From: Candidatus Nealsonbacteria bacterium
GTDB lineage: Bacteria > Patescibacteriota > Minisyncoccia > Minisyncoccales > JAUWAW01
Direction: 5' to 3'
NCBI GenBank assembly: GCA_030601865.1
Contig: JAUWAW010000002.1
Coordinates: forward strand, 7,410-71,409
Length of the DNA stretch: 64,000 nucleotides
Both the position numbers and the translations under genes were made by a program. Positions 3,541-59,221 of the stretch are shown here, one piece after another (position 1 is the stretch's first letter; each line of letters begins with the position of its first letter). The notes below the pieces were generated by a model. It was given only the letters and a program-made list of their open reading frames with translations. It was not told the origin of the DNA and did no database searches.

Positions 3541-4710
3541 ATGCGCATTGGGTTTTTTACAGACACATATCTGCCGGTGATTCATGGAGTAGTGATTTCC
3601 ATAGAAAGTTTTAAAAAGGAGCTGGAGGCAGCGGGCCACCAAGTTTATATCTACGCTCCTGAAAGTCGGGGTTATAAGGATAAAAATCCCAATGTTTTTC
3701 GATTCAAATCGGTTAAAGTAATTAAAAAGCCGGAGATGCACTATGCTTTTGACTTCCTGCCAATTGGCCACAGCTTCAAAGAGGTAACACATTTTAAATT
3801 GGACATTGTTCACGCCCATACTCCTTTTGCTTTAGGTCTTCTGGCCAAATACATTTCAGAGCGGCAGTTGATTCCTTTAATCTACACTCACCATACCCAT
3901 TATCCAGAATATGCCAAGGCCTATTTGAAGGAAAAAATCTTTCTGCCTTACTTGGCCAAAATCTACAGTACCTGGTTCTCTAATGTTTCCGATGCGATTA
4001 TCGCTCCTTCTTTGAAAATAAAAAAGCTGCTTCGTAAATATGGAGTGAAAAAGAAAATTCCTATTTATATTCTGCCAACCGGCATTAATCTAAAGCTTTT
4101 TAAGAAGGCAAGGGAAAAGGCCCAAATCTTAAAAAAGAAGCTCAAAATTTCTCCTAAAACAAAAATCCTTCTTTCTGTCAGCAGAATAGGTGAAGAGAAA
4201 AACATAGAGTTCTTAATGAGAACAATGAGGGAGATTTTAAAAAAGAAAGATGATTTTTTGTTTTTACTGGTAGGGGATGGACCCTTTTTAGGAGAATTAA
4301 AGAAAATAGCAAAAGACCTAAAAATTATCAACAATATTATATTCACCGGCAGAATTCCTCATAAAGATATTCCCCTTTACTATCAAGCGGCTGATCTCTT
4401 TGTCTTTGCTTCTTTAACTGAAACTCAAGGCATTGTTATTTTGGAGGCATTGTCTTCCGGGCTACCAATAGTTGCTTTGAAAGACGATGCATTATCAGGT
4501 ATTGTTTTAGACAACAAGAATGGATTTTTAGTAGAGCGAGAATCTCCGAAATTATTTTCCCAAAAAATTATCGAACCTTTGGAAGATTCTGCGATTTATA
4601 AAAAGTTTTCTAAGGAAGCAGTAAAGACGGTTCGCCAATTTTCAGAAACAAATGTAGCAAAGAAATTAATTGAAATCTATAAAAGCCAAATAGAAAAACT
4701 CTACCAATAG
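3541..4710 (+). CDS. Glycosyltransferase family 4 (GT-B)
   Basis: MRIGFFTDTYLPVIHGV at the N-terminus; the C-terminal half carries the EX7E-like segment LTETQGIVILEALSSGLPIVA. Confidence 0.8.
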   Translation: MRIGFFTDTYLPVIHGVVISIESFKKELEAAGHQVYIYAPESRGYKDKNPNVFRFKSVKVIKKPEMHYAFDFLPIGHSFKEVTHFKLDIVHAHTPFALGLLAKYISERQLIPLIYTHHTHYPEYAKAYLKEKIFLPYLAKIYSTWFSNVSDAIIAPSLKIKKLLRKYGVKKKIPIYILPTGINLKLFKKAREKAQILKKKLKISPKTKILLSVSRIGEEKNIEFLMRTMREILKKKDDFLFLLVGDGPFLGELKKIAKDLKIINNIIFTGRIPHKDIPLYYQAADLFVFASLTETQGIVILEALSSGLPIVALKDDALSGIVLDNKNGFLVERESPKLFSQKIIEPLEDSAIYKKFSKEAVKTVRQFSETNVAKKLIEIYKSQIEKLYQ

Positions 4711-4745: not shown

Positions 4746-5866
4746 TTTTGTTTTAGTTCAAGGATTTTTGACACGGATTGATTAATTCTTTGTTCGGAAA
4801 TTTCTCCATCTTGTACTGCTTTTTGAAGCGCGAGTATGGCTGAAGGGACCGGACTCCGCCAGCCAGAAAAAATGAGCATATCCACTCCAGCTTTAACAGG
4901 CAGACTAACTATTTCTTTCAAAGAAAATCTATCACGCAGAGAATTCTGGGAAAGGTCATCAGACATAATTAAAATTTGCTCGCCCAATTTTTCTTGAAGG
5001 AATTGAATACCCTTTTCAGAAAAAGTAAAAGGCAGGGCTGAGTCAAGTTCTTGATAAATAACATTCGCAGTCATCACAAAAGCAGGGCTGACTCCTATGC
5101 CAAAAGGCTTGCTGGGATAATTTTTCACTGCCTCTTGAAATTGAGAAATTTCAGGCAGTTTGGGCAAAACAGCTAATTCTTCTTCAGGGTTAAAGGCAAT
5201 GCCTGTATAGCCCGGGAAATGCTTAATGGCTGTCAAAATTCCCGCTGCTTCTTGCCCTTTCATCACCAAATAGGCTAATTGGCCAATTTGCGAGGGCTCT
5301 TTGCGAAAAGCCCTTGCAAAAAGAAAATCTCCGGGCTGAGCCAAATCTAAAAGTGGGGCTAAATTAAGATTAATACCCAATTCTTTAAGTTCTCTGCCTC
5401 TTTCCAAGCCAATTTGATATGCTTGTTCAATGGTTTCAATCTCTGACTGAGGGGTTTTTTCTTGAGCAAAATCCACACGGGAAATGAGCCCGCCTTCTTG
5501 GTCAACGGCAATAAAAAGGGGCAGACCAGTGTTTTTTAAAGAAACTTCCTGAAGGCTCTCAATTAAATTTTTAAGCTGCTCTGGACTCTTAATGTTTCTT
5601 TGTAACAGGAGTACTCCTCCCGGAGAAAAAGTTTTAATTAAATTCTCAACTTCGGGTGTCAAAATCTCTCCCTCAAACCCAACAATAAACAATTGCCCAA
5701 TTTTTTGTTCCAAGGTCAGGTTATCTAAAATATTTTCTTCAATACCCTGAGAAACCCTTGCCGGCCCAAAATCAAAAAAAGGAAGAACAACCTTCTGCAA
5801 AACAAAAACCAAACCCAGAATCAAAACCAAAACAAAGAAACTTTTCTTCAAAATCCCCAAGACCAT
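4724..5866 (-). CDS. Glycoside hydrolase family 3, beta-N-acetylhexosaminidase (NagZ-like), membrane anchored
   Basis: GH3 N-domain motifs: IGQLFIVGF, FIAVDQEGG, KHFPGYTG. N-terminal TM helix. Confidence 0.8.
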   Translation of the reverse strand: MVLGILKKSFFVLVLILGLVFVLQKVVLPFFDFGPARVSQGIEENILDNLTLEQKIGQLFIVGFEGEILTPEVENLIKTFSPGGVLLLQRNIKSPEQLKNLIESLQEVSLKNTGLPLFIAVDQEGGLISRVDFAQEKTPQSEIETIEQAYQIGLERGRELKELGINLNLAPLLDLAQPGDFLFARAFRKEPSQIGQLAYLVMKGQEAAGILTAIKHFPGYTGIAFNPEEELAVLPKLPEISQFQEAVKNYPSKPFGIGVSPAFVMTANVIYQELDSALPFTFSEKGIQFLQEKLGEQILIMSDDLSQNSLRDRFSLKEIVSLPVKAGVDMLIFSGWRSPVPSAILALQKAVQDGEISEQRINQSVSKILELKQKVFKRQP

Positions 5867-15621: not shown

Positions 15622-16065
15622 TTGGCACATTGTGCGGCACATTCTCAAAAGGAGTTACAGATTATGTCTATGCTGCTCACCTCTGGTCTATCTGAAAGGA
15701 TGATTGAAGATTTAGAATCTTTCCTAGGGCAACCGGCCTTTGATGGAAATATCCAAGAAGGTGGATACTTTTTCTGGGCACCAGAAATAAATTTTGGCGC
15801 TCTGGAAAGAATCCTTGAAGCCACCCAAGAAGGCTCTGACGAAGTTCTTGAAAAAAAACTGGAACGACGTAAACAAAAAATGAAAACTCTGTCTCTCAAG
15901 CTCCAGCAGGCAAAAAAAGAACTATCTGAAATAGTTCAGCAGCTTCAGCAAAAGGAGGCAAAATATAATAGGTTACGGGAGGAAACTAACCGGCTAAAAC
16001 AGCAAAGGGCTAGAATCCTCAACAAGGCAATATCTTGCTTGCAAGAAACCGCCAAAAGGCTCTGA
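15622..16065 (+). CDS. Hypothetical protein with C-terminal coiled coil (start uncertain, possibly the ATG at 15664)
   Basis: The ORF is the only evidence. The antisense track ORF 15645..15899 was rejected. Confidence 0.4.
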   Translation: MAHCAAHSQKELQIMSMLLTSGLSERMIEDLESFLGQPAFDGNIQEGGYFFWAPEINFGALERILEATQEGSDEVLEKKLERRKQKMKTLSLKLQQAKKELSEIVQQLQQKEAKYNRLREETNRLKQQRARILNKAISCLQETAKRL

Positions 16066-16153
16066 GCAACCTACTCAGAACCAAATGTTTTTGTGTGGAA
16101 CTTATTGAATAAAGTTAGAACTTACTTTGAGCAAAATCCCGGCATTGATATTT

Positions 16154-16284
16154 AGCGGCGCTTCGCGCCGCTATCACCGCCGCCTTCGGCGGCAACACCA
16201 GGGACGTTGACGTTGACAGCGCCACGCGCCTACTGACGCCTTGACCGCGGCGTCGTTCCCAGCGGCGGCTTCGCCGCCGCTGGG
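16154..16284. repeat. Cluster of four GC-rich hairpins (REP/BIME-like array or structured RNA)
   Basis: AGCGGCGcttcgCGCCGCT (16154-72), GCCGCCttcGGCGGC (16179-93), GACGCCttgaccgcGGCGTC (16235-54), CCCAGCGGCGGCttcGCCGCCGCTGGG (16258-84). The GC-rich block stands out against AT-rich flanks. Confidence 0.55.
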
Positions 16285-16343
16285 CTGCAAAACAGGAAAA
16301 TTTTCTCTACATTTCTAAAAATTTTAGGCGGCGGGCTTTTAGT

Positions 16344-16375
16344 AAAAATAGAGCATCATTTGACGCTCTATTTTT
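16344..16375. terminator. Bidirectional terminator hairpin next to tRNA-Ala
   Basis: AAAAATAGAGC-atcatttgac-GCTCTATTTTT. Confidence 0.6.
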
Positions 16376-16380
16376 ATCTG

Positions 16381-16453
16381 TGGACCCAGAGGGATTCGAA
16401 CCCTCGACCTCGAACGTGCCACGTTCGCGCGCTACCAACTGCGCCATGGGCCC
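16381..16453 (-). tRNA. tRNA-Ala (anticodon GGC)
   Basis: Manual cloverleaf: acceptor GGGCCCA/TGGGTCC with G3:U70, D arm GCGC-AGTTGGTA-GCGC, anticodon arm CGAAC-GTGGCAC-GTTCG, T arm GAGGG-TTCGAAT-CCCTC. No encoded CCA. Confidence 0.85.
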
Positions 16454-16467
16454 CTCACCCAGAAAGC

Positions 16468-16728
16468 TTAAGCTGATGCTAAACTGTTTTTGATTCTTTT
16501 TTTCAACTGAGTATATGCCTGAGCAAATCTTTTTAGATTATCCTCTCTATATCTAGTATCAGCTTTAGCTCTGTATGCCTCGTAATAAATAAGGTCAAAA
16601 GGAGCTTTGTTTTTAGTTGACTTACTTTTTCCAGTATTATGTTCTTCAAGCCTTCTTATTAAATCATTTGTATAGCCAATATAAACACTGTTATCTCTTT
16701 TACTTCGTATCAAGTAGATATAATACAT
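16468..16728 (-). CDS. GIY-YIG nuclease domain protein (stand-alone, 86 aa)
   Basis: MYYIYLIRSKRDNSVYIGYTNDLIRRLEEHN is the GIY-YIG motif set. The ORF is exactly bracketed by inverted CCCAGAAAGCTT / AAGCTTTCTGGG. Confidence 0.8.
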   Translation of the reverse strand: MYYIYLIRSKRDNSVYIGYTNDLIRRLEEHNTGKSKSTKNKAPFDLIYYEAYRAKADTRYREDNLKRFAQAYTQLKKRIKNSLASA

Positions 16729-31265: not shown

Positions 31266-31532
31266 ATGCCAATAACTAAGTCAGCTAAAAAAGCGTTGAG
31301 GCAGAATATAAAGAGGAGGAAGCGAAATATTCAGAGGAAAAGGAAAATAAAAGACCTTATCAAAGAGGTGAGGAATTTAGTTGCTCAAAAAAAGATTGAA
31401 CAAGCCAAAAAACTCCTGCCCAAAATTTACAAGGCCTTAGATAAAACAGCCAAAGTCGGCGTCATAAAAAAGAATACCGCCAGCCGAAAAAAATCAAGAA
31501 TAACAAAACTGACCGCGAAGCGGTCACCCTGA
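31266..31532 (+). CDS. rpsT: 30S ribosomal protein S20
   Basis: MPITKSAKKALRQNIKRRKRN... is a typical S20 basic helical protein. Confidence 0.85.
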   Translation: MPITKSAKKALRQNIKRRKRNIQRKRKIKDLIKEVRNLVAQKKIEQAKKLLPKIYKALDKTAKVGVIKKNTASRKKSRITKLTAKRSP

Positions 31533-31595
31533 GGAGGCCGAAGGCCGACGAAGGGTCTCGTGACTTAACAACGGGATTCTTCGGCTTCGCCTCAG
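31529..31595. repeat. GC-rich imperfect hairpin overlapping the rpsT stop (terminator/repeat)
   Basis: CTGAGG-AGGCCGAAGGCCGACGAAGG...CTTCGGCTTCG-CCTCAG. Shares TGAGGAG(G)CCGAAG(G)CCGACGAA(A/G)GG with the core of repeat G1. Confidence 0.55.
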
Positions 31596-51909: not shown

Positions 51910-51945
51910 TGTGTCAAAATCCTGCGATCGCAGGATTTTGACACA
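51910..51945. repeat. Perfect 36-nt palindrome centred on GCGATCGC, copy H7
   Basis: TGTGTCAAAATCCTGCGATCGCAGGATTTTGACACA. Identical to 59186-59221, including the flanks TTT...GTTTT. Confidence 0.85.
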
Positions 51946-59185: not shown

Positions 59186-59221
59186 TGTGTCAAAATCCTG
59201 CGATCGCAGGATTTTGACACA
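59186..59221. repeat. Perfect 36-nt palindrome centred on GCGATCGC, copy H8
   Basis: Identical to 51910-51945. Confidence 0.85.

Follow-up and report, generated by a model that had tools for sequence, protein, structure and literature searches.

A G+C-rich hairpin block beside tRNA-Ala in a Candidatus Nealsonbacteria genome is probably the relic arm of a serine-recombinase island

The block of G+C-rich hairpins described here (16153-16284) lies within 64,000 nucleotides of a Candidatus Nealsonbacteria contig, the whole stretch of DNA that was analyzed and that we call the window. On its 5′ side are a conserved 60-nt module and, before that, a gene for a protein of 133/147 aa (stop codon at 16063-16065) with its own terminator hairpin, which is conserved in the syntenic locus L001 (related loci carry L numbers) and whose "mir-7918" match in a permissive Rfam scan is spurious. 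On its 3′ side, an A+T-rich spacer and a palindromic bidirectional terminator separate it from a tRNA-Ala(GGC) gene, which lies antisense, 269 nt downstream of the module. Two copies of the hexamer TGTGGA, separated by ~285 bp, frame this arrangement (Table 1). A stem in the spacer weakly resembles, by eye, a GCAAAAATTTTCT...AGAAAATTTTTGC module of L096, L100, and L101, and the palindrome next to the tRNA gene is 87-89% identical to one that follows tRNA-Ala(GGC) in the syntenic locus L016. On the other side of the tRNA, an 86-aa GIY-YIG nuclease gene (16468-16728, minus strand) precedes a gene for a 113-aa membrane protein; the corresponding position in the closest relative (L016) lacks the nuclease gene, which therefore probably entered as a small mobile insertion of its own.

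Table 1. Features of the hairpin locus in the window and of the inverted attachment-site copies in two related islands
Feature	Position	Strand	Description
Terminator hairpin and T-run of the upstream gene	16058-16092	+	Flanking chromosome; not part of the element
Conserved 60-nt module	16093-16155	+	20 codons, (V)WNLLNKVRTYFEQNPGIDI, then stop TAG
TGTGGA, left core repeat copy	16094-16099	+	attR-like junction; equivalent to the crossover core TGGTGG in related islands
Hairpin 1	16153-16173	+	9 bp TAGCGGCGC/GCGCCGCTA, TTC loop; starts on the stop codon
Hairpin 2	16179-16193	+	6 bp, TTC loop
GACGTT GACGTT tandem	16203-16214	+	In unpaired linker
Hairpin 3	16235-16254	+	6 bp, 8-nt loop; also in predicted folds
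Hairpin 4	16258-16284	+	12-bp perfect stem, TTC loop
A+T-rich spacer	16285-16342	+	AAAATTTT...AAAATTTT stem at 16297-16325
Palindromic bidirectional terminator	16343-16376	both	16 bp; directly after tRNA-Ala
TGTGGA, right core repeat copy	16379-16384	+	Overlaps the tRNA-Ala 3′ end (antisense); attL-like position
tRNA-Ala(GGC)	16380-16453	-	ARAGORN and Rfam; integration target of the element family
Inverted attP copy, locus L048	~4270-4500	-	
Inverted attP copy, locus L090	~5300-5580	+	

The block is 72% G+C, against 39% for the window, 32% for the module just 5′ of it, and 36% for the spacer on its 3′ side. RNA folding of 16140-16300 gave -79.4 kcal/mol for the plus strand (z = -3.9) and -87.1 kcal/mol for the minus strand (z = -4.2), and none of 200 dinucleotide shuffles folded as well on either strand. 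Across the whole window, 20 perfect G+C-rich hairpins were observed where 2.2 were expected from 30 first-order Markov (dinucleotide-frequency) randomizations, with the strongest in the block. A first-pass annotation, made from the sequence alone, had reported four stems of 6-12 bp, TTC apical loops in three of them, a tandem hexamer in the linker, a sharp contrast in composition with the flanks, and a bidirectional terminator bounding the block. Repeat finding recovered every stem where it had been placed, and the loops, the tandem (read here as GACGTT twice), the contrast, and the terminator are borne out as well. The proximity to tRNA-Ala that it mentioned in its title proved to be the key to the element. 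Its view that no ORF is plausible holds for the block itself but missed a conserved 20-codon frame (16093-16155), whose stop codon TAG (16153-16155) opens hairpin 1.

The letters directly after the four stems are ATCACC, AACACC, GTTCCC, and CTGCAAAAC. Since a terminator scan found no U-tract after any of the four, these hairpins are not canonical terminators. Short-word blastn returned no homologue of the block from 129 related loci or from the rest of the window; among the 129 loci, only generic 13-nt hairpins recur, such as CCGCCTTCGGCGG.

Conservation at this locus resides in the module. It is ~75% conserved between the window and L001, which is striking given that the adjacent proteins are only 30-69% identical. 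Synteny around the FAD-oxidoreductase gene supplied one useful contig (L001), which ends inside its own G+C-rich region; the other FAD-oxidoreductase loci have lost synteny and later gave the empty site described below. Homologues of this oxidoreductase also place the source genome among the CPR/Patescibacteria, as Parcubacteria-like. A degenerate pattern derived from the module stretch was used to scan genomes and metagenome contigs. It matched 5 CPR genomes, including Saccharibacteria and Minisyncoccia, and 117 metagenome contigs, and the 136 raw matches resolved into ~130 genuine copies of the module in ~120 public contigs. The window holds a single match (16111-16138; 0.04 expected by chance), and the left boundary of similarity among the ~130 copies falls at the left TGTGGA. 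Moreover, 52 of 128 copies lie ≤250 nt from the end of their locus, which for most loci is the end of the contig, and thus the units made of module and hairpins break CPR assemblies beside tRNA-Ala.

Several properties identify the module as coding in origin. Its frame reads W-(W/x)-(C/S)-L-L-(D/E/N/K)-K-V-R-T-Y-(Y/F)-E-Q-N-P-D-x-D-stop. At columns that the search pattern left unconstrained, second codon positions are near-invariant (entropy 0.24, 0.00, and 0.21) and first and third positions vary (entropy 0.9-1.8). Leucine is written as CTA, CTT, CTG, TTA, or TTG and arginine as AGA or CGA, length differences before the stop are multiples of three, and in nearly all of 99 distinct copies an in-frame stop falls 11-14 codons past the start of the motif. 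The window copy keeps the frame and all invariant residues. In L007 and L102 (Saccharibacteria) and in L111, representing two independent lineages, TGA stands in place of the otherwise invariant Arg codon (AGA/CGA); these copies are presumably dead arms.

Other identities for the module were tried and rejected. A resemblance to the RNase P motif "AAAGUCCG" was dropped, since the window sequence is AAAGUUAG and RNase P models did not score. As a promoter, TTGAAT...TACTTT would have a spacing of 11-12 nt, and a promoter scan was empty there. No T-arm could be drawn for a tRNA fragment. ARAGORN reported nothing like a tmRNA tag, and the peptide ends in acidic residues. A leader peptide or attenuator has no co-directional gene downstream in the window, L008, or L011.

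The origin of the frame became apparent from its neighbors. When all ORFs of the fetched loci were clustered, the commonest neighbor of the module was a protein of ~505-550 aa, present in 42 loci, with Resolvase, Recombinase, and Zn_ribbon_recom domains, and hence a large serine recombinase (LSR). The full-length enzymes of L061, L086, and L097 terminate with ...WW-CLLDKVRTYYEQNPDxD-stop, which is the module in the same register. Another 16 LSRs end instead in ...FKKPWNYLYFLPAEARAEGE..NRLWW-T(R/Q)xDLNPRP..., where the T(R/Q)xDLNPRP tail is the translated T-arm of an antisense tRNA. Searching the window with LSRs by tblastn gave 72% identity over 18 aa at 16096-16149 and revealed no LSR anywhere in the 64 kb, only matches to this 18-aa tail. 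On sequence grounds, the module is the detached 3′ end (last ~18 codons) of an LSR gene and forms the P arm of its attP.

By Rfam and ARAGORN, the LSR 3′ end overlaps an antisense tRNA that is almost always tRNA-Ala (GGC, TGC, or CGC), and tRNA-Ala is the overlapped tRNA in 13 loci. Likewise, the antisense tRNA downstream of the unit is tRNA-Ala in 16 of 18 cases, the window included; the other two (Val and Ser) lie kilobases away. An invertase-like flip-flop, in which the LSR would alternate between tRNA-fused and native-tail states, was considered and rejected. All 16 of the 16 MLKY-type (tRNA-proximal) full-length LSRs are tRNA fused, and so there is no sign of switching.

In two islands, all junctions can be read. 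In L048 and L090, attL is ...gaagcaaatcgtcta TGGTGG acccagcg, running into antisense tRNA-Ala, and attR is ...cataac TGGTGG tgtctattagac, running from the flank of a glycerol-3-phosphate dehydrogenase (GPD) gene into the module. An internal, complete attP copy reads ...gaagcaaatcgtcta TGGTGG tgtctattagac. The arms are thus swapped around a 6-bp TGGTGG core, equal to the CCACCA end of the tRNA, as integration predicts. Because this core lies in LSR coding sequence, attP is inside the recombinase ORF, and therefore integration moves the last ~18 codons and the sequence after the stop to the far end of the island.

Unoccupied sites complete this picture. In L002 (3789-3960), read directly, the order is tRNA-Arg(CCT)-tRNA-Ala(GGC)...gggtCCACCAtctaaaATG(GPD), with nothing between. 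L003 (231-400) has the same tRNA-GPD order, also unoccupied, and L004 (3800-3950) has an unoccupied tRNA-Arg(CCT)-tRNA-Ala(GGC) pair. At the empty sites of L002 and L003, the gene is that for glycerol-3-phosphate dehydrogenase and the tRNA-Ala ends in CCACCA; at the very point that is empty there, L048 and L090 carry an island of ~6 kb. The window's neighborhood shares tRNA-Arg(CCT), tRNA-Ala(GGC), and the FAD-oxidoreductase gene with the occupied and empty sites of its relatives.

Islands of this family are 5-7 kb long and carry restriction-modification or Schlafen-like defense cargo, including XRE-type controllers, an N6/N4 methyltransferase, a Schlafen-type helicase with an S24 peptidase domain, and a GmrSD/Schlafen nuclease. 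The distance from unit to tRNA varies widely: 167 nt in L040, 269 nt in the window, 323 nt in L049, and then from 807 up to 7342 nt, a range that covers intermediates (0.8-1.9 kb) and full islands (4.7-7.3 kb). At the short end, L040 keeps the recombinase-side half-site ...aattcaatatGGTGG next to its tRNA, and L049, like the window, has a terminator there instead of the recombinase-side arm.

Each complete island also holds a third, complete attP copy, inverted and ending ~20 nt upstream of the LSR start codon (Table 1). Besides L048 and L090, it is present in L030, L031, L044, L050, L056, L065, L078, and L097, and it consists of ~100 nt of LSR 3′ coding sequence, TGGTGG, the module, and hairpins. 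As a consequence, inverted repeats flank the LSR gene on both sides, and the cargo likewise. Possible roles for this copy include an operator for autoregulation, cassette exchange, or flipping. Two further sequence features accompany the arms. Perfect palindromes TTGGCGTTCTAGAACGCCAA, TTGACATTCTAGAATGTCAA, and a TTGACATTCCCGAATGTCAA variant occur downstream of the far-junction arm in L015-type units (for example, L030 at 330-400), L074, and L087; their symmetry is kept by paired changes, and each looks like an operator. Also, a ~50-nt module, GGGCGGGCAAAAATTCCTTCCCCTAAAACCCCTTTCCTTTTTGCCCGCC, falls within 250 nt after the LSR-tail module, in one orientation in L040, L051, and L115 and in the other in L069, L010, and L123, so that the same stem has either a pyrimidine-rich or a purine-rich apical loop.

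In the closest relative (GCA_004196315.1), the two sides of the window's locus are on two contigs, both of which break inside hairpins. L016 reads tRNA-Arg(CCT)-113 aa-tRNA-Ala(GGC)-palindrome-unit, L001 reads 132-aa gene-terminator-unit, and in L085 the unit continues into an XRE gene and a GmrSD gene. From these layouts, two inverted units enclose an island in the closest relative where the window has a single unit. The relative's tRNA-proximal unit lies in the opposite orientation to that of the window and has no LSR.

How do the hairpins relate to this system? In 28 of 42 subfamily representatives, a stem starts no more than 9 nt from the LSR stop codon; many of these stems are very strong and rich in G+C, but their sequences differ between subfamilies. 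In 30 of 43 subfamilies, the G+C content of the 150 nt that follow the stop exceeds that of the locus by >5 points. It is by position that the block is assigned to the unit, for it starts on the stop codon as the stems of other subfamilies do. Compared across subfamilies, the hairpins are the lineage-variable tail after the LSR stop, and no part of the element is less conserved. An alignment of hairpin 1 is feasible for five sequences (the window, L001, L010, L039, and L069). In these, 95.6% of cells are paired, three pairs show compensatory changes, and there are six G.U cells against one C.A on the module's plus strand; these changes make structure at the RNA level possible. On the module strand, TTC loops outnumber GAA loops 12 to 2 across subfamilies. 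A comparison of mismatches over all subfamilies for RNA versus DNA structure was not significant (G.T 14 versus A.C 9, p = 0.40). Any RNA structure would be the 3′ tail of the recombinase transcript and not an independent RNA gene. We infer that in the excised state the hairpins probably give the recombinase message its 3′-end structure or form a barrier to transcription, and that in the integrated state they probably insulate the island border; a role at the DNA level, or selfish accumulation of minipalindromes, is a possible alternative. Hairpins of similar style may be a general 3′-end feature of this genome. The rpsT gene (31266-31532) ends in two G+C-rich hairpins with GAA loops (31510-31547), TGACCGC-GAA-GCGGTCA and GGCC-GAA-GGCC. 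The earlier suggestion that the block is the source of G+C-rich hairpins inside genes was spot-checked at this one site; the style is the same, but the sequence is unrelated.

Taken together, we propose that the block is probably the noncoding hairpin tail of an integrative-island arm, left as a decayed relic and not part of an active element. In relatives, the LSR gene carries an attP with a TGGTGG core ~18 codons before its stop codon, and the element would be inserted by recombination at the 3′ CCACCA of tRNA-Ala genes. One junction fuses the LSR body to the antisense tRNA, and the other, 5-7 kb away, receives the last 18 codons and the post-stop hairpins, pointing inward. The window retains this far-junction arm, with TGTGGA, the 20-codon module, and the hairpin tail pointing at tRNA-Ala(GGC). 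No cargo, inner attP copy, or LSR lies between the arm and the tRNA in the window. We favor a relic over an active element since the place of the recombinase-side half-site is taken by the palindromic terminator of the tRNA itself, and we use "relic" in preference to "island" because the 64-kb window, to which our view of the genome extends, encodes no LSR. Against this reading, what links the window locus to an island is homology of the 60-nt module, geometry, and a repeat of 6 nt that may be due to chance.

Other explanations were weighed against the relic arm. It is unlikely, in our estimate, that the ~285 bp between the TGTGGA cores form a miniature nonautonomous island that an LSR encoded elsewhere in the genome can mobilize. 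The geometry of a unit, a short interior, and an antisense tRNA-Ala does recur in L040 and L049, L040 retains its recombinase-side half-site, and the module of the window is undamaged, with every invariant residue present. In the window and in L049, however, the terminator and not the recombinase-side arm adjoins the tRNA, and the window offers neither an LSR nor a second module copy. An independent structured small RNA on the plus strand, spanning ~16093-16376 and ending at the bidirectional terminator, is less plausible again, and we regard it as improbable. The strong folding of both strands, the pairing of hairpin 1 kept through three compensatory and six G.U changes, the bias toward TTC loops on the plus strand, and the terminator downstream would all suit such an RNA, which the first-pass annotation had suggested. 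But Rfam 15 at gathering thresholds passed only four tRNAs in the whole window, and at E ≤ 10 nothing credible fell on the block within 16000-16480, where the best CRISPR-DR and sRNA models scored 13-16 bits against thresholds of 39-45. Moreover, nothing resembling a promoter precedes the module, the conserved 5′ part is a recombinase C terminus that has evolved as codons, and the structured part is unconserved between subfamilies in both sequence and architecture. What survives of the suggestion is the covariation in hairpin 1, which allows for structure in RNA.

Very improbable, too, is an array of REP/BIME-type or other selfish palindromes that arose through a REP-type transposase or replication slippage and is unrelated to the module. 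Like REP/BIME elements, the locus has G+C-rich imperfect palindromes between convergent genes and is multicopy in relatives; many CPR loci contain short hairpins in the style of CCGCC-TTC-GGCGG and GCGGC-TTC-GCCGC, oriented either way, and such hairpins are also present where rpsT ends in the window and even within the 3′ coding end of LSR genes (the PAEARAEGE region). Yet the block hairpins have no other copy in the remaining 63.7 kb, the window has only ~5 hairpins of this kind, hairpin 1 is fixed in position on the stop codon, no REP-associated transposase is near any copy, and the conserved part derives from coding sequence. The REP/BIME-like array raised in the first-pass annotation was nevertheless apt in spirit, since the block is part of a dispersed, multicopy family of CPR elements; it is the 60-nt module that repeats, and the mechanism is LSR integration and not REP/RAYT. 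Least credible of all is a translated gene for a 20-aa microprotein, starting with GTG at 16093 and followed by a structured 3′ untranslated region. Conservation at the amino acid level and the in-frame GTG of the window would fit, but no start codon is conserved among the 99 distinct copies. ATG, GTG, or TTG occupies the first module codon in ~25 of them, about a quarter, with TGG commonest; moreover, the frame runs upstream into LSR bodies, and the database "proteins" that carry the motif are short gene-caller artifacts.

The relic arm and the islands from which it appears to derive can be compared with several known systems. The mechanism of serine integrases (PMC3783163) provides the background. 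Like the LSR elements phiC31, Bxb1, SPbeta, SCCmec (Ccr), and Tn4451 (TnpX), the CPR family combines Resolvase, Recombinase, and zinc-ribbon domains, has a short shared core, and converts attP and attB into hybrid attL and attR, with both empty and occupied sites found here. Unlike those elements, it targets the CCA end of tRNA-Ala, has attP inside the recombinase ORF and a third, inverted attP upstream of the LSR, and resides in CPR hosts; the window copy lacks a recombinase. The Islander report (PMC4383910) attributes tRNA genes as a target class to tyrosine integrases. The SSV-type "suicidal" integrases of archaeal viruses and plasmids (PMC7253208) likewise have the recombination site within the recombinase ORF, so that integration at a tRNA splits the gene; those are archaeal tyrosine recombinases, which forfeit much of the protein when the gene is split. 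In the bacterial serine recombinase, only the last ~18 residues are lost, and a tail encoded by the antisense tRNA takes their place. The arrangement is therefore SSV-like, but the enzyme being a serine recombinase, it is not a member of that group. For a tail swap as a sensor of integration state, the nearest functional analogy is mycobacteriophage BPs, in which attP lies in a regulatory gene and integration alters the C terminus of its product (PMC4557955); there, it is the repressor gene that is interrupted, with a tyrosine recombinase as the integrase, and the sensor role of the CPR tail is an analogy.

Tycheposons of Prochlorococcus, whose genomes are streamlined, are small cargo islands at tRNA genes that accrete in tandem and leave degenerate remnants, with tyrosine recombinases in 910 of 937 elements (10.1101/2020.12.28.424599). 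They are comparable to the arrangement in L097, L086, and L061 and to the window relic. Tandem accretion would explain the former three loci as an older LSR fused to the arm of a newer element. Their remnants differ in kind, being partial tRNAs, whereas that of the window is a recombinase 3′ end with hairpins.

As a kind of feature, an integrative-island relic is ordinary; the variant is apparently undescribed. Full-text literature searches found no paper on serine-recombinase islands in CPR/Patescibacteria. We tentatively suggest, with less confidence than we place in the relic itself, that these are an undescribed family of tRNA-Ala-specific serine-recombinase islands of CPR/Patescibacteria, which combine an attP in the ORF, an inverted attP copy, and recombinase-less miniatures. 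If so, integration would exchange a conserved 18-residue tail and a hairpin 3′ untranslated region for an antisense-tRNA tail, which could sense the integrated versus excised state, the mRNA of the integrated recombinase would be complementary to tRNA-Ala, and miniature derivatives without a recombinase, as in the window, would persist at tRNA-Ala.

CPR/Patescibacteria have tiny genomes, and how they acquire defense genes is poorly understood. A family of ~130 copies explains the assembly breaks beside tRNA-Ala, the variable restriction-modification and Schlafen/GmrSD cargo, and database entries for "hypothetical proteins" that are spurious. Its att sites (tRNA-Ala CCACCA end × TGGTGG) are compact, and its recombinase is a naturally occurring enzyme with a C terminus that depends on integration state. 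For annotation, a cluster of G+C-rich hairpins next to tRNA-Ala in such a genome is best taken for an island arm and not for a new RNA gene.

Finally, two identical, perfect 36-nt palindromes, TGTGTCAAAATCCTGCGATCGCAGGATTTTGACACA, were found elsewhere in the window (51910-51945 and 59186-59221), bracketing PolX/PHP, dnaN, dnaA, rnpA, yidC, and jag. The cumulative GC-skew minimum of the window is near 56-57 kb, which points to a replication-origin region between the two palindromes.
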